A stretch of DNA of 5,683 nt from a virus, in IMG/VR virus record IMGVR_UViG_3300045988_020466, positions 1 through 5,683 of that record. One strand, written 5' to 3'. The notes under the pieces are model-generated. The model saw only the letters and a program-made list of their open reading frames with translations. It was not told the origin of the DNA and searched no databases. Below are positions 1-5,683 of the stretch, one piece after another; the stretch's first letter is position 1, and each line of letters begins with the position of its first letter. Both the position numbers and the translations under genes were made by a program.

Positions 1-55
1 GCGACTTCTACTTCTTCTTCATCCCGTCGCGTCTGCTCTGGGAACACTTCGAAAA
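1..55. repeat. Terminal redundancy: 1..55 is identical to 5629..5683, so the window is a circular genome of 5628 nt opened inside the VP1 gene
   Basis: Exact 55-nt match (gcgacttctacttcttcttcatcccgtcgcgtctgctctgggaacacttcgaaaa) at both window ends. The reading frame is continuous across the junction, since 5628 is a multiple of 3. Confidence 0.9.
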
Positions 56-1370
56 CCTGATGGGACAAAACGACTCCACCTTCTGGGCAGAGAACGTGGA
101 ATACACAACGCCGAAAACAACTGCGCCGGAAGGCGGCTGGAAAGTGGGAACGCTGGCAGACTACTTCGGCATTCCGACCGGGGTAGCAAACCTTCAGGTA
201 AACTCACTGCCGTTCAGAGCATATGCAAAAGTCTGGAACGAATGGTTCAGAGACGAAAACCTGCAGCAGCCTGTCACGATGAGCAAGACAGACGCAACGA
301 CCGCAGGAAGCAATACCGGCACGAACCTCACGGACGCAGAAGCGGGCGGTCTGCCGCTGAAAGTGTGCAAGTACAAAGACTACTTCACAAGCTGCCTGCC
401 GAGTCCGCAGAAGGGCGAGGCTGTAAAGCTGCCCATGAGCGGTAACGCACCGGTTCTGGGGTACAAAACAGCACAAAGAGAAACGCCCAATGATGGCAAA
501 TACCCTCAAGGCCCAATTAGCAGCCTTGAAAGCTATCCCGCACTAATGGGCGTGGCGGGCTCGACACCGACGGGAACCGTATACCTTGGTGCAAGACTCG
601 ACCAATTAACCGCAGCAACGATCAACGAGTTACGCCAGGCGATCGCAGTGCAACACATCCTGGAACGCGATGCCAGAACCGGCACCAGGTACAAAGAGTA
701 CCTCAAAGGGGCGTGGGGTGTGACGAGTCCTGATGCACGTCTTGACCGGTCGGAGTACATCGGCGGCTACAGACTGCCCATCAACATCAACCAGGTCATC
801 CAGACATCGGCGACCGACACGACCAGTCCGCAGGGCAACACGGCAGCGTTCTCCATGACAACCATGAGCCGGAACATGGCTACCTACTCGGCGACCGAAC
901 ACGGCTTTATCCTGGGCCTGGCAGCGGTGCGAGTAGATCACAGCTATCAGCAGGGCTTGTCTCGTATGTGGACGCGCAGCACTCGCTTCAGCTACTATGA
1001 CCCGATGCTCGCAAACCTCGGCGAGCAGGCAGTGCTTAATCAGGAGATCTATGCACAGGGTACGGCGGTGGACGAAGAGGTCTTCGGCTATCAGGAAGCA
1101 TGGGCGGATTATCGCTACCGCACCAACATGATCACCGGCGAAATGCGCAGCACCTACAAGCAGACTCTGGACGCATGGCACTATGCAGACAAGTACGACA
1201 AGCTGCCTACTCTCTCCAGTGACTGGATCAAAGAGGGTACGGAGAACATCGATCGCACGATTGCAGTGCAGTCGGACAACAGCCGTCAGTTTATCTGCAA
1301 CTTCTACTTCGACCAGACATGGACGCGGGCGATGCCGATCTACAGCCTGCCGGGCCTCGATACGATCTAA
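1..1370 (+). CDS. VP1: Major capsid protein VP1 (gokushovirus F-like), C-terminal 456 codons; the N-terminal part is at 5409..5628 across the circular junction, giving about 529 aa in total
   Basis: Long ORF ending at TAA 1368-1370. It is in frame with the ORF starting at ATG 5409. The joined N-terminus MNRNAEQHYSQVPHANVPRARFKRDYSLLTTMNEGDLVPIYCDEVLPADT...DNCYCDFYFFFIPSRLLWEHFENL matches the conserved gokushovirus VP1 N-terminal region from memory. Size is typical for VP1. Confidence 0.88.
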   Translation, partial: DFYFFFIPSRLLWEHFENLMGQNDSTFWAENVEYTTPKTTAPEGGWKVGTLADYFGIPTGVANLQVNSLPFRAYAKVWNEWFRDENLQQPVTMSKTDATTAGSNTGTNLTDAEAGGLPLKVCKYKDYFTSCLPSPQKGEAVKLPMSGNAPVLGYKTAQRETPNDGKYPQGPISSLESYPALMGVAGSTPTGTVYLGARLDQLTAATINELRQAIAVQHILERDARTGTRYKEYLKGAWGVTSPDARLDRSEYIGGYRLPININQVIQTSATDTTSPQGNTAAFSMTTMSRNMATYSATEHGFILGLAAVRVDHSYQQGLSRMWTRSTRFSYYDPMLANLGEQAVLNQEIYAQGTAVDEEVFGYQEAWADYRYRTNMITGEMRSTYKQTLDAWHYADKYDKLPTLSSDWIKEGTENIDRTIAVQSDNSRQFICNFYFDQTWTRAMPIYSLPGLDTI

Positions 1371-1382
1371 GGAGGTGCAGCA

Positions 1383-2309
1383 ATGGCACTATCCTTGATG
1401 GGCCTGATCAAGGGCGGTCTGACTCTGGCAAGCACGCTGTCGAGCATCTACAGCAGCATCAAAGGGAGCACCTCGAGCGCAAGACAGCAAGGCACGATGC
1501 AAAACACTGTCCAAAGCGGCACGACCACGGGAACAACCGCACAGGACACCACGAGCACAGGCGGGAGCACTCAGACCGGCAACACCGGAGCGCTGGGAAA
1601 CCTGCTGTCAACGGCTCTGGGAACGCCTACAGGCAACAACGCCGGAGCAGCAGCAGAGTTTAATGCAGGTCAGACACAGACAGCCAACAATCTGCAAAAC
1701 GGTATGTGGAGCCTGGGCAACGTCATCAACCTGGGAAGTATGCTGGCATCCAACGCGATGAGTGCAGCAAGCCAAAGCAGCGCTATGCGGTACAACTCCA
1801 AAGAGGCCAAAGCTCAAAGAGACTGGCAGGAGCGTATGAGCAGCACAAGCTATCAAAGAGGCGTGGCAGACCTCAAAGCAGCAGGGCTCAACCCTGTACT
1901 GGCAGCATATAACGGCTTTGGAGAACAGACGCCGTCGGGCGGCTACGGAAGTCTGGGCGGGGGTCAGACCTTCGGCCATACTCAGGCTATGGCAATACCA
2001 ACGGCAAAAAATGCGACCATGCAAGCCATGTACGACTATGGCAACAACACAGCCCAGATCGTCGAGAACTATCAAAATGCCATCAACAGTGCAAAGCAGT
2101 CCTCGGACTACTGGACAGCCGAACACCTCGAACAGATGCAGCAGCAGACCGTGAGCAGCAGCGCTCAGACCGTGGGTCAGCTGGCCGAAGCCGAAAGGAG
2201 CAGCAGCGCTCAGACCTCGAACACCAGAGAGACCACCGACAGCAAACAGACCAACGTAGCCGGTGAGCTGTCCGGTGAATGGACAAACAAAAAACAGGGC
2301 AGAAGATAG
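1383..2309 (+). CDS. VP2: Minor capsid / DNA pilot protein VP2 (308 aa)
   Basis: Strong RBS AAGGAGG at 1369-1375 lies 7 nt before ATG 1383. The product is Gly/Ser/Thr/Gln-rich and low-complexity, with the conserved core AQRDWQERMSSTSYQRGVADLKAAGLNPVLA typical of gokushovirus VP2. It sits immediately downstream of VP1, as in gokushoviruses. Confidence 0.8.
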   Translation: MALSLMGLIKGGLTLASTLSSIYSSIKGSTSSARQQGTMQNTVQSGTTTGTTAQDTTSTGGSTQTGNTGALGNLLSTALGTPTGNNAGAAAEFNAGQTQTANNLQNGMWSLGNVINLGSMLASNAMSAASQSSAMRYNSKEAKAQRDWQERMSSTSYQRGVADLKAAGLNPVLAAYNGFGEQTPSGGYGSLGGGQTFGHTQAMAIPTAKNATMQAMYDYGNNTAQIVENYQNAINSAKQSSDYWTAEHLEQMQQQTVSSSAQTVGQLAEAERSSSAQTSNTRETTDSKQTNVAGELSGEWTNKKQGRR

Positions 2310-2338
2310 TTGACAAACACAGAAAAGGGGTGTATATT
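2310..2338 (+). promoter_or_regulatory. Sigma70-type promoter P1: TTGACA (2310-2315), 17-nt spacer, TATATT (2333-2338) preceded by TG
   Basis: Consensus -35 hexamer, 17-bp spacer, and a 5/6 -10 hexamer. It lies directly after the VP2 stop and about 40 nt upstream of the RBS and ATG of the 70-aa ORF. Confidence 0.6.
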
Positions 2339-2378
2339 ATGAGTGTACCAATCACACACTTAGGTTAGGAGGATAACC

Positions 2379-2591
2379 ATGAGGAGTCAGATCACAAAGA
2401 GATTTAACATCAACCTGACAGATAAAGAACAGGCAGCACTAAAAAACCTGACGGAAGAGTATGCAAACCGAAACTGGAAAGCAAACACTTCAGACATCAT
2501 CAGGGACGCTATCGTATACTACAGCGAAAAGATGACAGACTATAAAATTGCAGCAGAAGCAATCAGCGAAGAGGAAGACTTGCCCTTCTAA
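2379..2591 (+). CDS. 70-aa ribbon-helix-helix (Arc/MetJ/CopG-like) putative DNA-binding transcriptional regulator
   Basis: RBS AGGAGG at 2367-2372 lies 6 nt before ATG 2379. The N-terminus KRFNINLTD has an alternating polar/hydrophobic beta-strand pattern with basic residues. It is followed by helix A (KEQAALKNLTEEYA), a short turn, and helix B starting with an N-cap (NTSDIIRDAIVYY). This is the classic RHH topology. The fold assignment is by eye only. Confidence 0.5.
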   Translation: MRSQITKRFNINLTDKEQAALKNLTEEYANRNWKANTSDIIRDAIVYYSEKMTDYKIAAEAISEEEDLPF

Positions 2592-2602
2592 GAGACGATT
2601 TT

Positions 2603-2618
2603 GCCGGGCAGACCCGGC
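2603..2618 (+). other. Short GC-rich hairpin (GCCGGG-caga-CCCGGC) downstream of the RHH ORF; a U-run (2645-2650) follows at a distance
   Basis: 6-bp perfect GC stem with a 4-nt loop. The T-tract is about 25 nt downstream, so this is not a canonical intrinsic terminator. Confidence 0.25.
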
Positions 2619-2671
2619 CAAATCTGCAACATTTATCCATAGGTTTTTTTAAGAAAGTGCTAAATTTTGTG

Positions 2672-2716
2672 TCAGTGGGCCCCTATAACATCAAGAGGGT
2701 TATAGGGGCCCACTGA
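2672..2716. repeat. Perfect 18-bp inverted repeat with a 9-nt loop (tcagtgggcccctataac-atcaagagg-gttataggggcccactga), immediately upstream of the VP4 gene
   Basis: The left arm 2672-2689 is the exact reverse complement of the right arm 2699-2716. It is the largest perfect palindrome in the genome. No T-tract follows it, so it is not a standard terminator. Confidence 0.85.
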
Positions 2717-2737
2717 GGAAAGGCGCAGCGAAACTAT

Positions 2738-3847
2738 ATGTCATGTACAAGACCGCTCGTCAGAATACCGACAAAAGATGGTGATTACCGCGTAGTAAGC
2801 CTAAAAGGATACTTGAGTCACAGCGGTAAAAACCTCGAAATAGTCGCAGATAAAGAGCGTCAGAACCTGAACGAGAAAAAAATCAAAGAGCTGATAAGGG
2901 ACCAGGAAGCGCAGCTGCTACCGTGCGGACAATGTCCGGGATGCAAAATGGCAGCAGCATCCAGCTGGGCGAACAGAATGGAGCTAGAGCTTCCGTATCA
3001 TCAGAATGCGTGGTTTATCACGTTTACATACGATGACGAGAACGTGCCATACCGAATGACATGGGACGAAGGAACAGGCGAAATGCTGGTAGAAAATTAC
3101 AGTCTCCGCTACGAAGACATGCAGAAATTCTGGAAACGCCTCAGAAGGTACATGGAGTATCACAAGATAAACAACGGAAAACTGATGTACTTCCAGTGTG
3201 GTGAATATGGTGGAAAAACACACAGACCACATTATCATGCGATCGTGTACGACATACCATTCACCAAAGAAGACCTAAAGGTCTACAAAAAGAAAAACGG
3301 CGCTGTATATTACAACGTCGATTGGTTTACCGAACTATGGGGCATGGGCCATGTGGTCATCGCAGCAGCAGAGTGGAAAGCGATGGCATACACAGCAAGA
3401 TACACCACGAAAAAGGTCTATGGAAAGGAAGGAAAAGAATTTTACAAAGAGCTGGGAATTTTACCTGAGAAGTGCAGCATGAGCAAAAGACCAGCGATTG
3501 GAGCAAAATACTTCGAAGAACATAGCGAAGAAATCTATGCAAAAGACAAAATCCAGCTGAAGAACGGAAAAGTTTGCAAACCGCCAAGGTATTTTGATAA
3601 GCTATACGATGCACAGTGTCTGAGAAAACCACTCACAGACAAAGAGGTAGAAGACATTGAGCTGACAATAGAAAAAGCCGAGTCCGATGAGCTCAAAGCG
3701 ATAAAGAGAAAACGTCGCAAGTTAGCAAACGACGCACTCTTCGCCAAGCTCAAGCAGAACAACGGCTTAACCATGCAAGAGTATTATAACAAAGAGGAAC
3801 AGAAAATACAAGACAGGTTCAGAAAACTCATCCGGGAAGAAATCTAA
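2738..3847 (+). CDS. VP4: Replication initiator protein VP4 (HUH rolling-circle endonuclease, phiX174 gpA-like), 369 aa
   Basis: Motif I FITFTYDD, motif II HRPHYHAIVYDIPF (HUH), and motif III AYTARYTTKKVYG (two catalytic Tyr spaced as in phiX174 gpA YVAKYVNKK) are present. There is an N-terminal MSCTRPL and a CGQCPGC zinc-ribbon-like motif. All of this is typical of gokushovirus VP4. Confidence 0.88.
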   Translation: MSCTRPLVRIPTKDGDYRVVSLKGYLSHSGKNLEIVADKERQNLNEKKIKELIRDQEAQLLPCGQCPGCKMAAASSWANRMELELPYHQNAWFITFTYDDENVPYRMTWDEGTGEMLVENYSLRYEDMQKFWKRLRRYMEYHKINNGKLMYFQCGEYGGKTHRPHYHAIVYDIPFTKEDLKVYKKKNGAVYYNVDWFTELWGMGHVVIAAAEWKAMAYTARYTTKKVYGKEGKEFYKELGILPEKCSMSKRPAIGAKYFEEHSEEIYAKDKIQLKNGKVCKPPRYFDKLYDAQCLRKPLTDKEVEDIELTIEKAESDELKAIKRKRRKLANDALFAKLKQNNGLTMQEYYNKEEQKIQDRFRKLIREEI

Positions 3848-3871
3848 GGAACGGCTAAATAAGGGAATGCA

Positions 3872-3910
3872 GACGGCGTGGCCTCGAAAGGCTGCGCCGT
3901 CCTTTTCATT
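3872..3910 (+). terminator. Rho-independent terminator after VP4
   Basis: A 12-bp GC-rich stem (gacggcgtggcc / ggctgcgccgtc, with two G-U pairs in RNA) and a 6-nt loop, followed by CUUUUCAUU. Confidence 0.6.
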
Positions 3911-3953
3911 CGGCGCACCGCGCCGACCGGACGGCCTTAAACTCAAAAAGTGC

Positions 3954-3982
3954 TTGACAAGTGTATAATTTAGGTGTATAAT
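3954..3982 (+). promoter_or_regulatory. Perfect-consensus sigma70 promoter P2: TTGACA (3954-3959), 17-nt spacer, TATAAT (3977-3982)
   Basis: Both hexamers match consensus exactly with optimal 17-bp spacing. It lies 28 nt upstream of ATG 4010. It contains tandem GTGTATAAT repeats. Confidence 0.7.
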
Positions 3983-4009
3983 AAAGGTGTAGAAAGGACG
4001 GTGCTTAAA

Positions 4010-4192
4010 ATGACCGAAATCGAAAAAATCAAAAAGAGCATCCAGAACCAGATAGATCAACAGGAAAGAAACTACTACAAAGACCTTAAGAGCAAAGCAA
4101 AGCACACAGATGGTACAGAGATGTACAAAGTAGACAGCCACAAAATCGAAGCGCTGGAAGTAGCACTGAGAATAATCGAAATGTATGAATAA
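4010..4192 (+). CDS. Hypothetical 60-aa highly charged, helical protein (MTEIEKIKKSIQNQIDQQERNYYKDLKSKAKHTDGTEMYKVDSHKIEALEVALRIIEMYE)
   Basis: ATG 4010 lies downstream of the predicted P2 start site, with AAAGGA 11 nt upstream. The GTG at 3974 given in the ORF track lies inside the -10 element and is unlikely to be the start. The ORF is flanked by its own promoter and terminator. I do not recognise a family. Confidence 0.55.
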   Translation: MTEIEKIKKSIQNQIDQQERNYYKDLKSKAKHTDGTEMYKVDSHKIEALEVALRIIEMYE

Positions 4193-4195
4193 ACC

Positions 4196-4242
4196 AAAAA
4201 ACGTGAGGTTGACGAAAATCAGCCTTGCGTTTTTTTTTTTTT
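4196..4242 (+). terminator. Rho-independent terminator, a hairpin flanked by an A-tract and a 13-T tract, which could also act bidirectionally
   Basis: The structure is aaaaaacg-tga-GGTTGA-cgaaaa-TCAGCC-ttg-cgtttttttttttttt. The stem is interrupted, with 13 consecutive T at 4230-4242. It lies immediately after the stop of the 60-aa ORF. Confidence 0.6.
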
Positions 4243-4250
4243 GGTAAAAT
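4242..4250 (+). promoter_or_regulatory. Candidate extended -10 promoter (TGgTAAAAT) for the late gene cluster
   Basis: It matches the TGnTAnAAT pattern. No good -35 is present: TTGCGT lies 14 nt upstream, which is suboptimal. It sits upstream of the VP8-like / VP5 / VP3 / VP1 cluster. Confidence 0.3.
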
Positions 4251-4353
4251 TGACATAGAAAACCAGCACCACAAAACGAAAGGAGAAAGCTGCCTCCAGT
4301 GCTGGTGATCTGTGCTTCATTTATACAAATATGGAAAGAAGGGAGGTGTTGCC

Positions 4354-4458
4354 ATGATCACTTTAAAAGACGTGAAGGGTATCTTCAACCAGCTGCGCAA
4401 GATTTTGGCCATGCTGGATAAGATTTACCACGCACTCAACCTGGATAAGGAGGAATAA
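4354..4458 (+). CDS. Hypothetical 34-aa amphipathic helical peptide (MITLKDVKGIFNQLRKILAMLDKIYHALNLDKEE)
   Basis: Strong RBS GAAGGGAGG lies 7 nt upstream of ATG 4354. The stop is 1 nt before the next gene's ATG. It is a small ORF of uncertain reality. Confidence 0.4.
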   Translation: MITLKDVKGIFNQLRKILAMLDKIYHALNLDKEE

Positions 4459-4459
4459 T

Positions 4460-4579
4460 ATGGCACATCGTATGCCGGTCAACCCGAAAAAGGACAAGCG
4501 GGTGTTTACCAACACCGCGAAGAAAACCAAGAAGATCAACGTCAACCCGAAGCCGTCGAGAGGAGGCATCAGGCTGTGA
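4460..4579 (+). CDS. VP8: Small basic DNA-binding protein (gokushovirus ORF8/VP8-like, phiX174 J analogue), 39 aa
   Basis: RBS AAGGAGG at 4448-4454 lies 5 nt before ATG 4460. The product MAHRMPVNPKKDKRVFTNTAKKTKKINVNPKPSRGGIRL is very K/R-rich and ends in RGGIRL. This resembles the C-terminal RGGIRF of the chlamydiaphage ORF8 protein, as I recall it. Confidence 0.6.
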   Translation: MAHRMPVNPKKDKRVFTNTAKKTKKINVNPKPSRGGIRL

Positions 4580-4668
4580 ACGAAGTACAGCTTATCATCA
4601 AGGTAATAACGCTCAGTCTGCTCATCGCAGATCTGTACATGATCGTCAAAATGATTCGGAGGAAATAA
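4576..4668 (+). CDS. 30-aa single-pass transmembrane peptide (MNEVQLIIKVITLSLLIADLYMIVKMIRRK), a candidate lysis or membrane peptide
   Basis: The GTG start overlaps the TGA stop of the upstream gene (ctGTGA). The RBS GAGAGGAGG (4558-4566) lies 9 nt upstream. The product has a roughly 22-residue hydrophobic core and a basic C-terminal tail (RRK). Its stop is 2 nt before the VP5 ATG. Confidence 0.4.
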   Translation: MNEVQLIIKVITLSLLIADLYMIVKMIRRK

Positions 4669-4670
4669 AG

Positions 4671-4934
4671 ATGGAATTCCAGATATACGCAATCAAGGAC
4701 GAACTTGCCGGGACCTTCGGCAATCTGATGGTGGTCAACGAAAAGGTGGCCGATCGAACAATGAAGTGGATGGCCCAGGAGATGGAGAAGGCCGACTGCG
4801 AAGATAAGCGGGTCTATCTGATGGGCAGCTACGACAACGAGACCGGCCTGATCAGGCCGGAGCAGATGCCGCGTCTGAGCTACAATCTCGAGTTGATGAA
4901 AAAGGAGCAGACGAATGGGAGTCAGAATCTTTAA
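4671..4934 (+). CDS. VP5: VP5-like protein (gokushovirus ORF5; ssDNA synthesis / phiX174 C analogue), 87 aa
   Basis: RBS GGAGG lies 7 nt before ATG 4671. The N-terminal pattern MEFQIYAIKDELAGTFGNLMVVNEKVADRTMKW...EDKRVYLMGSYDNETGLI follows the conserved VP5 signature (IY..KD..a..F..p......A.R.f ... ED..ly.lG.fD.eTG.i). It lies just upstream of VP3, as expected. Confidence 0.6.
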   Translation: MEFQIYAIKDELAGTFGNLMVVNEKVADRTMKWMAQEMEKADCEDKRVYLMGSYDNETGLIRPEQMPRLSYNLELMKKEQTNGSQNL

Positions 4935-5412
4935 GCCCTACGAGGACGAAAAACCGGTGGCACTGCCGAACGAACCGGGAAACCGGTTTGAGCCGGAGTA
5001 CAAGGAGCGGTATGATGACCGCGGACAGCCGTACCTTGAAAAGGTGGGCGAGGTGGACACCTACGAGAAAATCCAGAGCTACAAGGACGAGTGTGACGTT
5101 ATGGCTATCCTGAGCCGATACGCTGCCGGAGACGAGAGCGTCCTGGCAAAACCGGGGTGGTACATCGACACCAGCAAGCTGCCGAAGACCTATACCGAAT
5201 ACATGAACCTGATGAACGAGAAGCGGGAAGAGTTTAACCAACTGCCGCTCAGTATTCGCCAGGCATTCGGCATGAACTTCGAAAACTGGATGGCAACAGC
5301 CGGTGAACAGGAGTGGCTGGACAAAATGGGCATCAAAATTCAGCAGAATGCACAAGAAAAGGTCGATGCTGCCATCGAAGATGTTGTGCAGAAAGGAGAA
5401 AATAAAGAATGA
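4915..5412 (+). CDS. VP3: Internal scaffolding protein VP3 (165 aa)
   Basis: RBS AAAGGAG lies 7 nt before ATG 4915. It overlaps the VP5 3' end by 20 nt in another frame. Its stop overlaps the VP1 start (ATGA at 5409-5412). The product is acidic, with EKIQSYKDECDVMAILSRYAAGD and LPLSIRQAF regions like gokushovirus VP3. It sits directly before VP1. Confidence 0.65.
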   Translation: MGVRIFKPYEDEKPVALPNEPGNRFEPEYKERYDDRGQPYLEKVGEVDTYEKIQSYKDECDVMAILSRYAAGDESVLAKPGWYIDTSKLPKTYTEYMNLMNEKREEFNQLPLSIRQAFGMNFENWMATAGEQEWLDKMGIKIQQNAQEKVDAAIEDVVQKGENKE

Positions 5413-5683
5413 ACCGCAATGCTGAACAGCACTACTCTCAAGTTCCTCATGCAAACGTACCGCGAGCGAGATTCAAGCGAGACTACTCGCTGTTGACGAC
5501 CATGAACGAAGGAGACCTCGTCCCGATCTACTGTGATGAGGTGTTGCCGGCCGACACGGCAAAGATCAACCTGAACGCTCTGATGCGCATGAGCACACCG
5601 CTGTATCCGGTTATGGATAACTGTTACTGCGACTTCTACTTCTTCTTCATCCCGTCGCGTCTGCTCTGGGAACACTTCGAAAA
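5409..5683 (+). CDS. VP1: Major capsid protein VP1, N-terminal part, continuing at window position 1 through the circular junction (5629..5683 duplicates 1..55)
   Basis: ATG 5409 is preceded by an in-frame TAA at 5403-5405 and by RBS AAAGGAG 10 nt upstream. The translation MNRNAEQHYSQVPHANVPRARFKRDYSLL... is the canonical gokushovirus VP1 N-terminus, and the frame is continuous with 3..1370. Confidence 0.85.
   Translation, partial: MNRNAEQHYSQVPHANVPRARFKRDYSLLTTMNEGDLVPIYCDEVLPADTAKINLNALMRMSTPLYPVMDNCYCDFYFFFIPSRLLWEHFE

Follow-up and report, generated by a model that had tools for sequence, protein, structure and literature searches.

On the streptococcal rolling-circle plasmid pMV158, the genes copG and repB are co-transcribed from the promoter Pcr; repression of Pcr by CopG limits RepB, and expression of copG-repB without repression upon entering a new cell helps establishment (PMC2724298, PMC4485353, PMC5717011). 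Here we describe a gene, rhh, with a similar setting in a virus. It lies in a 5,683-nt stretch of DNA (IMG/VR record IMGVR_UViG_3300045988_020466, positions 1 to 5,683; the whole stretch is referred to below as the window), which is a complete circular gokushovirus genome with every gene on the + strand. The gene encodes a 70-aa protein (MRSQITKRFNINLTDKEQAALKNLTEEYANRNWKANTSDIIRDAIVYYSEKMTDYKIAAEAISEEEDLPF) predicted to adopt a ribbon-helix-helix (RHH) fold and stands directly before the gene for the replication initiator VP4, and we give a probability of about 0.55 to the reading that it acts in the manner of CopG, as autorepressor of an rhh-VP4 operon. Microviruses are textbook minimal phages without dedicated regulators. 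In a survey of their diversity only methyltransferases and lysis genes are listed as accessory functions (PMC9239249).

The features on which the argument draws are as follows, with coordinates of the window.

1383 to 2309, + strand: VP2, a pilot/minor protein by PHROG, the 5′ neighbour of rhh.
2310 to 2338, + strand: P_rhh, a predicted sigma70-type promoter matching the consensus at 11 of 12 positions (TTGACA at 2310-2315, a 17-nt spacer, TATATT at 2333-2338).
2329 to 2359, no strand assigned: candidate operator, the block GGTGTATATTATGAGTGTACCAATCACACAC, with GTGTA at 2330-2334 and 2343-2347, AATC at 2350-2353 and ACAC at 2356-2359.
2367 to 2372, + strand: Shine-Dalgarno sequence AGGAGG, read from the sequence, 6 nt ahead of the ATG.
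2379 to 2591, + strand: rhh, 70 aa plus stop codon, recognised from its homologues, substitution rates and ribosome-binding site.
2397 to 2537, + strand: predicted RHH domain, residues 7 to 53 (strand K7-RFNINLT-14, helix A 15-30, N-cap N36-T-S-D39, helix B 37-53).
[quoted passage not shown]
2597 to 2624, + strand: first intergenic hairpin, GATTTTGCCGGG-cAGA-CCCGGCCAAATC (inverted repeat I4, seen also in the DNA fold of the rhh-VP4 spacer).
2672 to 2716, + strand: perfect 18-bp hairpin with loop ATCAAGAGG (inverted repeat I1), 21 nt before the VP4 start.
2738 to 3847, + strand: VP4, HUH rolling-circle replication initiator (PF23343, 1.4e-14; phrog_942, 1e-97).

The rhh open reading frame (ORF) is unannotated in MG945186 and in KX513873 (Human gut gokushovirus SH-CHD10), the latter being 97.4% identical to the window over its full length, and by tblastn it was found in only 3 of 50,697 GenBank phage records, all three without a feature under the match. 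When 5.8 billion proteins were searched, the homologues fell into 73 clusters at 90% identity, almost all of them from contigs of 5.4-5.8 kb; an exhaustive profile search of 1.84 billion representatives found only 39 clusters at 50% identity, which marks the family as small. Loci in IMG/VR were recovered by protein pattern (38), via VP4 (a further 9) and by a DNA motif alone (a further 7), and all were microvirus-sized. The order VP2-rhh-VP4 was constant in the 52 genomes examined (40 + 11 + 1), and a protein only 35% identical to that of the window (P0107, in L121) occupies the same position. An AGGAGG or GGAGG-like site was also found in the relatives. Among nine genomes with a 70-aa ORF, the median ratio of nonsynonymous to synonymous substitution (dN/dS) was 0.14 (core 0.12, linker 0.35), and the variable sites at codon positions 1, 2 and 3 numbered 16, 9 and 32. 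By this pattern of substitution the ORF at 2379-2591 is a genuine gene, subject to purifying selection. An earlier note, made from the letters of the window, had proposed a 70-aa ORF between VP2 and VP4 and a search for homologues at that junction in other microviruses; both the gene and its relatives at the junction were found. A structural protein, an antitoxin and a partition protein were each considered as identities for rhh and ruled out by gene context. The neighbours were always VP2 upstream and VP4 downstream, unlike a type II toxin-antitoxin pair, and the matches to CcdA, RelB and DUF6290 were weak and at the level of the fold only.

Modelling by AF2 from 49 diverse members of the family gave a pLDDT of 80.9 and a pTM of 0.62, with helices at residues 15-30 and 37-53 and an extended N-terminus; the model from 35 close homologues was poor (pLDDT 59.5), and it was the divergent members that raised the score. 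The predicted strand-helix-helix topology of about 45-50 residues is that of the RHH superfamily, and the N-terminal strand alternates polar and hydrophobic residues (K7-R-F-N-I-N-L-T14) as that superfamily requires. Across the family R8 and N10 never vary and N12 hardly does, at positions that match the DNA-reading residues Q9, N11 and R13 of Arc, and the N36-T-S-D39 cap ahead of helix B is nearly invariant. The profile matches converged on the same fold, all of them below threshold. Pfam RHH_1 (the copG family) was the commonest (21 of the 49 diverse members, best E 1e-4), beside DUF6290, CcdA, RHH_3 and 56B_RHH; from NCBIfam came aCcr1 (22 of 49, best 5e-4), the ORF56 copy-control model (4 members, 1e-4), NikR and RelB. 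The window protein itself matched only Ta1207 and DUF6290, weakly. In sequence searches of the PDB neither the protein nor the family profile met with more than chance matches. Alignment by hhalign against Arc, Mnt, CopG and ORF56, whose sequences were confirmed against the PDB, was in the expected register. Because rhh falls below all family cut-offs, it represents a distinct sequence family within the RHH fold, and its assignment as an RHH-fold protein of a new sequence family is well supported by the model and the profiles; the protein is presumably dimeric. The layout read in the earlier note (strand, helix A, helix B with an N-cap, acidic tail) was thus borne out by the AF2 monomer, the weak but convergent profile matches and the register against Arc.

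The region ahead of the gene was examined for regulatory sequences. Two promoter sites with at least 11 of 12 consensus positions occur in the window; dinucleotide-preserving shuffles had 0.044 on average, and only 1 in 1000 of them had two or more. The -35 box, spacing and -10 box of P_rhh were kept in all relatives (10-12 of 12 positions in 44 distinct upstream sequences), and the 80 nt upstream of rhh were far more conserved than the adjoining coding DNA. VP2 ends, with its stop codon at 2307-2309, right at the -35 box and no terminator intervenes, which makes P_rhh the gene's own promoter, yet one not insulated from upstream read-through. The prediction that rhh has its own sigma70 promoter, TTGACA-17-TATATT, therefore stood, with the reservation on insulation.

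The consensus of the 44 upstream sequences is TTGACA..(14)..GGTGTATAnTATGnGTGTAc.AATCacACAC. Agreement was at least 90% at GGTGTATA, TATG, GTGTA, AATC and ACAC, and the inner -10 positions were variable; owing to these TATATT/TATAAT variants, a map of exact 10-mer conservation was uninformative. In the window the GTGTA at 2330-2334 overlaps the -10 box, that at 2343-2347 lies at the expected transcription start, and ACAC at 2356-2359 forms an inverted arm. The combination GTGTA-NN-AATC-NN-ACAC, hereafter the leader element, is nearly invariant and spans the expected start. When IMG/VR was scanned with TATGRGTGTA-NN-AATC-NN-ACAC, 47 of the 48 matches were on microvirus-sized contigs, the remaining one being on a 55.8-kb contig and lacking promoter context, and at every occurrence checked an RHH ORF lay 40-45 nt downstream of the element. 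By this motif alone seven genomes came to light whose divergent RHH proteins had escaped the peptide search, and the element was kept in L121 despite the 35% protein identity.

The paired boxes GTGTA-N8-GTGTA were also considered as the operator. In the window they occur only at P_rhh (2330) and at the second promoter, P2 (0.32 expected), in all RHH genomes they lie 47-53 nt before the ATG, and no exact match was present in 28 gokushovirus loci fetched via VP1, none of which had a detected RHH gene. They were dropped as RHH operator boxes after scans of the whole viral collection, in which GGTGTATAAT(N3-4)GTGTA was found at promoters where no RHH gene was found. The upstream half of the conserved region, GGTGTATAAT...GTGTA, is probably a generic strong-promoter form and not an operator; the downstream AATC..ACAC part, judged by its distribution, appears linked to RHH genes and essentially specific to them. 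Two other candidates in the search for conserved signals were rejected. A possible upstream leader peptide (ATG at 2339, MSVPITHLG) varied at codon positions 1 and 2 with position 3 fixed and had no ribosome-binding site. A dif-like site, TGTATATTATG, resembles part of E. coli dif; on inspection neither arm of a 28-bp dif was present and other genomes varied there.

Downstream of rhh, the spacer to VP4 (2592-2737) contained no promoter-like site, and the nearest terminator-like sites on the + strand were at 3872-3901, past VP4, and 4196-4235, past a small ORF behind P2. The hairpin at 2597-2624 has no T-run and so is no canonical terminator. This arrangement suggests that VP4 is probably co-transcribed with rhh. 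The DNA fold of the spacer had a z of -6.65, and the hairpin at 2672-2716 was present in all 51 genomes checked (L001-L044, L073-L081) as 29 stem/loop variants with perfect stems of 9-19 bp, among which double-sided (compensatory) changes occurred in the stem and the loop TCAAGA(A/G) was never lost. The type of stem tracks the VP4 lineage; the leader element does not. In the L121 lineage the spacer is different and is without the ATCAAGAGG hairpin. No Rfam family matched any part of the window, the hairpin included. From its conservation and position, the 2672-2716 hairpin is a candidate for a rolling-circle or complementary-strand origin, or for an element recognised by VP4.

From these features we infer that P_rhh, rhh, the hairpin and VP4 would form a two-gene replication operon of which rhh is the first gene. 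Upon infection the near-consensus P_rhh would fire and both the RHH protein and the rolling-circle initiator would be made; as the RHH protein accumulated it would dimerise and bind the GTGTA / AATC / ACAC element over the -10 box and the transcription start, and so throttle its own synthesis and that of VP4. The parallels with copG-repB on pMV158 and with ORF56 on pRN1, whose logic would be the same, together with the single strong promoter, led us to propose this form of control, in which a burst of VP4 is followed by a throttled supply. The position of rhh ahead of a rolling-circle initiator likewise points to control of Rep dosage rather than of lysogeny. Repression of the phage's own promoter, suggested in the earlier note, is plausible in so far as a near-invariant GTGT/ACAC element lies over the expected transcription start and 47 of its 48 matches are on microvirus-sized contigs.

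The second unusual property of the protein is its C-terminus, which reads ...AISEEEDLPF and is followed by the stop codon (tail peptide KIAAEAISEEEDLPF). The terminus of Gram-positive SSB is DISDDDLPF and that of E. coli SSB is DDDIPF, and it is at this tip that SSB partner proteins dock (PMC5531588, PMC5872125). The rhh terminus has the sequence traits of an SSB-Ct, namely a flexible linker and then an acidic run and [I/L]-P-F as the last residues of the chain, although the protein is no member of the SSB family, as its fold is RHH and not an OB fold and it has no SSB match in Pfam. Over codons 63-70 in the nine genomes dN was 0 against a dS of 0.13, and the pLDDT of the last 10 residues was 53. 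An acidic tail, of low confidence in the AF2 model, had been noticed from the letters; its likeness to the SSB tip had been missed.

Of the 50%-identity clusters, about 8 have an acidic run with [LI]PF before the stop codon, on linkers unrelated to one another. The endings in other members were PDDLPF, INEDLPF, EEDELPF, GDEDKLPF, DTDDNLPF, DDDDDLPF (twice) and DDDDLPY, the linkers ahead of them were unrelated and of 6 to about 60 residues, and the cores were quite different. On a neighbour-joining tree of the RHH core the tail underwent at least 10 changes of state. Among 10,641 ORF segments in the fetched loci the terminus [DE][DE]x0-1[LIVM]P[FYW] was found 14 times, all 14 in the rhh family. 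Such repeated gain or retention implies, as far as the sequences tell, strong selection. Near relatives of the window protein (74-81% identical) end in ...TGKKVR with no tail, and in L015 and L020 VP4 is 93% identical and the RHH protein is tail-less; as the tail does not co-evolve with VP4, it more likely addresses the host. A tail-less subgroup (P0064-P0074, L015, L017, L019, L021-L027) has a conserved segment after helix B, TG(Y/A)(T/V)FANEW, which may be another short interaction motif.

With its flexible linker, the acidic LPF-COOH tail would let a DNA-bound RHH protein dock onto, or compete for, the host proteins that bind SSB. It is tentatively proposed, with somewhat more doubt than confidence, that the tail engages SSB partners, so that RHH protein on the replicative form of the phage would display an SSB docking peptide. 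If this were true, protein parked on the DNA could recruit or compete for SSB clients of the PriA, RecQ, RecJ and DnaE type, and a 5.7-kb phage without replication machinery of its own would have a new route to the host's SSB hub. In the literature no paper was found that links RHH proteins or Microviridae with SSB-Ct.

Several observations weigh against a CopG-like autorepressor or against parts of it. No curated RHH model in Pfam or NCBIfam scored above its cut-off for the family, the Foldseek matches of the model were not significant (the domain being very small), the hhalign comparison with Arc, Mnt, CopG and ORF56 gave an E of 0.014 and a probability of only 3%, and the model is of a monomer, in which DSSP showed no strand and the fold's defining pairing of strands does not appear. 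With regard to the DNA, the GTGTA boxes are 12-13 bp apart, which is no helical repeat, and GGTGTATAAT...GTGTA also stands at promoter-like sites in unrelated phage contigs, often behind TTGACA-N14. The leader element is always in cis with rhh, and co-occurrence can therefore not separate an operator from an RNA element of the 5′ untranslated region or from co-inheritance. The two stable hairpins between rhh and VP4 could uncouple the genes. As to the tail, many members, including more than half of the 50%-identity clusters, are without one, from which it follows that the tail is not needed for the core function.

Other roles for the protein were weighed against autorepression. It might be a replication accessory that assists the HUH initiator VP4 at the origin, as TraY, TraM, NikA and MbeC do for their relaxases, or whose tail brings proteins of the host's replication apparatus or primosome to the replicative form. 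Such a role would be compatible with autoregulation, and rhh does adjoin an HUH gene with an invariant-loop hairpin between the two and a tail that copies the hub motif by which SSB recruits replication and repair proteins; we nevertheless regard it as unlikely, since the conserved element next to rhh overlaps a promoter some 315 nt from the hairpin, since 93%-identical VP4 proteins are accompanied by differing tails and the stem follows VP4 where the leader element does not, and since L121 keeps the leader element without the ATCAAGAGG hairpin. The tail could instead be the point of the protein, the RHH part mainly serving to dimerise and the SSB-Ct mimic titrating host nucleases, helicases and Ung off the single-stranded phage DNA. 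The recurrence of the tail on unrelated linkers with a dN of 0, its restriction to this family among the ORF segments surveyed and its independence of VP4 would all suit a decoy directed at the host, but in the majority of clusters at 50% identity, which have no tail, the RHH core is retained together with the DNA-reading residues and the leader element, which makes the tail an add-on and the decoy a poor candidate for the main function. Least probable of the roles considered is that LPF-COOH is a ClpXP degradation tag giving a short-lived regulator. The last three residues of SsbA, LPF, do suffice for degradation by ClpXP in Streptococcus mutans, and that paper describes the recognition as strain-dependent and absent in other bacteria (PMC5143411); in rhh the acidic run before LPF is conserved as well, which is a trait of SSB-Ct, whereas the degron described there is the three-residue LPF only.

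A repressor of lysogeny, immunity or a carrier state, which would silence the phage promoters in a temperate, pseudolysogenic or superinfection-immune condition, was implied when the earlier note suggested temperate-like behaviour, and Arc- and Mnt-type RHH proteins do act in the immunity region of phage P22. The view from which that note set out, of gokushoviruses as strictly lytic, no longer holds (PMC7062461, PMC3091885). Some gokushoviruses are temperate or pseudolysogenic, and the paper that describes them mentions no repressor; temperate enterogokushoviruses integrate passively through dif and XerCD (PMC7062461). VP1 relatives at about 50% identity were integrated in Oscillibacter sp. 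PC13 (L049), Muriventricola aceti H5_61 (L068) and Phascolarctobacterium faecium DSM 14760 (L056), and others in metagenome-assembled genomes of Clostridia (L048, L052, L053, L061). However, no RHH gene was detected in these gokushovirus prophages of Firmicutes by hmmsearch even at E <= 10, in the ten largest of the 28 VP1-fetched loci. The rhh family was not found in 185,579 species genomes (one genome per species), its genomes have no leftover ORF for an integrase, and all of its contigs are about 5.6 kb or otherwise virus-sized except one of 48 kb. That contig, L003 (ena:ERZ27281030:k141_41694), was rejected as a case of integration: it carries 5,664 of the 5,756 nt of the phage and then the Illumina adapter AGATCGGAAGAGCACACGT. 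With neither an integrated copy nor an integration function found, a lysogeny repressor is very improbable, and the suggestion of temperate-like behaviour was not sustained.

Some further observations were made on these contigs. L003 joins plasmid-like or bacterial genes (FtsX, ParM-like, HTH) to a near-complete microvirus, with the adapter at 11838-11856; it is probably a chimeric assembly that could pass for a prophage. The Firmicutes prophages comprise complete gokushovirus gene sets in contigs of 76-797 kb, cultured isolates included, and their gene order around the junctions differs from one prophage to another; a microvirus survey reported only two Gram-positive prophage cases (PMC9239249). 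Together with these relatives in Firmicutes, a promoter of the sigmaA type, a strong ribosome-binding site and an SSB tip of the Gram-positive type suggest a Firmicutes host for the rhh phages.

Elsewhere in the window, VP1 (Phage_F) spans the ends, and the further genes encode an ORF8-like 39-aa protein, VP5 (Phage_ORF5) and VP3 (Chlamy_scaf). Three Microviridae records from pig faeces are 86-88% identical to the window. The structural genes (1-2300, 4800-5683) have a GC content of 52-60%, and rhh, VP4 and the small ORFs (2250-4500) one of 39-49%; among the relatives, VP4 proteins that are 93% identical are paired with VP1 proteins that are 81-85% identical and with differing RHH subtypes. 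The split in GC content and the mixed pairings suggest modular recombination between replication and structural modules. In an oversized microvirus (L040 / L097, IMGVR_UViG_3300006298_000061, 6,963 nt) two VP4 paralogues, 47% and 73% identical to VP4 of the window, stand downstream of one RHH gene.

The other strong promoter of the window lies past VP4.

3954 to 3991, + strand: P2, a predicted promoter matching the consensus at 12 of 12 positions (TTGACA at 3954-3959, TATAAT at 3977-3982), with GTGTA at 3961, 3974 and 3987.

The three GTGTA(TAAT) units of P2 are 13 nt apart. About 25 of 40 relatives have the promoter, with small ORFs that vary between them behind it, and it may be a second target of the RHH protein; its 19-mer also occurs at phage loci where no RHH gene was found, and the assignment of P2 to RHH is weak for that reason. 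P2 appears to drive a small variable ORF and the unit ends at a terminator-like hairpin (3954-4235), an arrangement that resembles a moron cassette. At 4196-4260 there is a long terminator-like hairpin with a 13-T run, followed by GGTAAAATTGACATAG, and this block is near-unchanged in the distant relatives L006, L011, L037 and L004. Promoters of the P2-like form GGTGTATAAT-N3/4-GTGTA were seen at 6126 and 7883 in L088, at 9273, 9683 and 10241 in L092, at 1113-1139 in L115 (a 4.6-kb contig with a triple 13-nt repeat of the motif) and at 8946 in L118. In the 5-14 kb around GGTGTATAAT-GTGTA no RHH or microvirus gene was detected in L088, L092, L118, L115 or the L108 and L109 groups. GTG stood ahead of TATAAT at only 2 of 234 sites in Firmicutes genome loci, so it is no general feature there. 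The form may represent a class of promoters used by the phages of this habitat.

The gene marks a clade of gut gokushoviruses with what would be a plasmid-like module for Rep dosage, made up of a promoter, an RHH gene, a hairpin and an HUH initiator. This module gives a concrete handle on the control of gokushovirus replication and offers a candidate origin hairpin. The mimic of the SSB tip, if functional, would be a compact new device for hijacking the host, and its Gram-positive likeness, if true, hints at Firmicutes hosts for an abundant gut clade.

Of the systems with which the locus can be compared, the RHH accessories of HUH relaxases (TraM, TraY, NikA, MbeC) share only 6% sequence identity with rhh; in addition, the conserved site next to rhh is a promoter and not the putative nick hairpin, and the RHH protein does not co-evolve with VP4. 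Arc and Mnt of P22 are also phage-encoded RHH proteins, of 53-83 aa, with an operator that overlaps a promoter, and the strand and helix B of Arc align in register with those of rhh (QFNLRW with RFNINL, NSEIYQRV with TSDIIRDA). They work in the immunity region of a tailed phage that is temperate, whereas rhh has no sign of lysogeny and the gene downstream of it is a replication initiator. The tail is like SSB-Ct in its position, its acidic run with [L/I]-P-F-COOH and the flexible, poorly conserved linker before it, and Gram-positive SSB and ISEEEDLPF share I-S before the acidic run; it differs in having largely Glu for Asp and in being carried by an RHH protein predicted to bind duplex DNA rather than by an OB fold. 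ORF56, which controls the copy number of Sulfolobus pRN1, turned up in the searches by fold as well as in those by sequence; it comes from an archaeal plasmid, its matches were below the cut-off, and it has no acidic LPF tail. Closest in arrangement is copG-repB of pMV158, where, as at rhh-VP4, the gene for a small RHH protein (CopG or RepA, 45 aa, against a core of about 53 aa here) is immediately upstream of and co-oriented with that for an HUH rolling-circle initiator, and a single promoter of the sigma70/sigmaA type is overlapped by a symmetric element (PMC2724298, PMC4485353). The rhh protein differs from CopG in falling below the RHH_1 cut-off and in having no tblastn match in 72,556 plasmids, its candidate operator overlaps the -10 box and +1 and not the -35 box, and in the rhh-VP4 spacer no antisense RNA promoter was found. 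Unlike CopG, rhh sits in the genome of a virus and bears an SSB-Ct-like tail.

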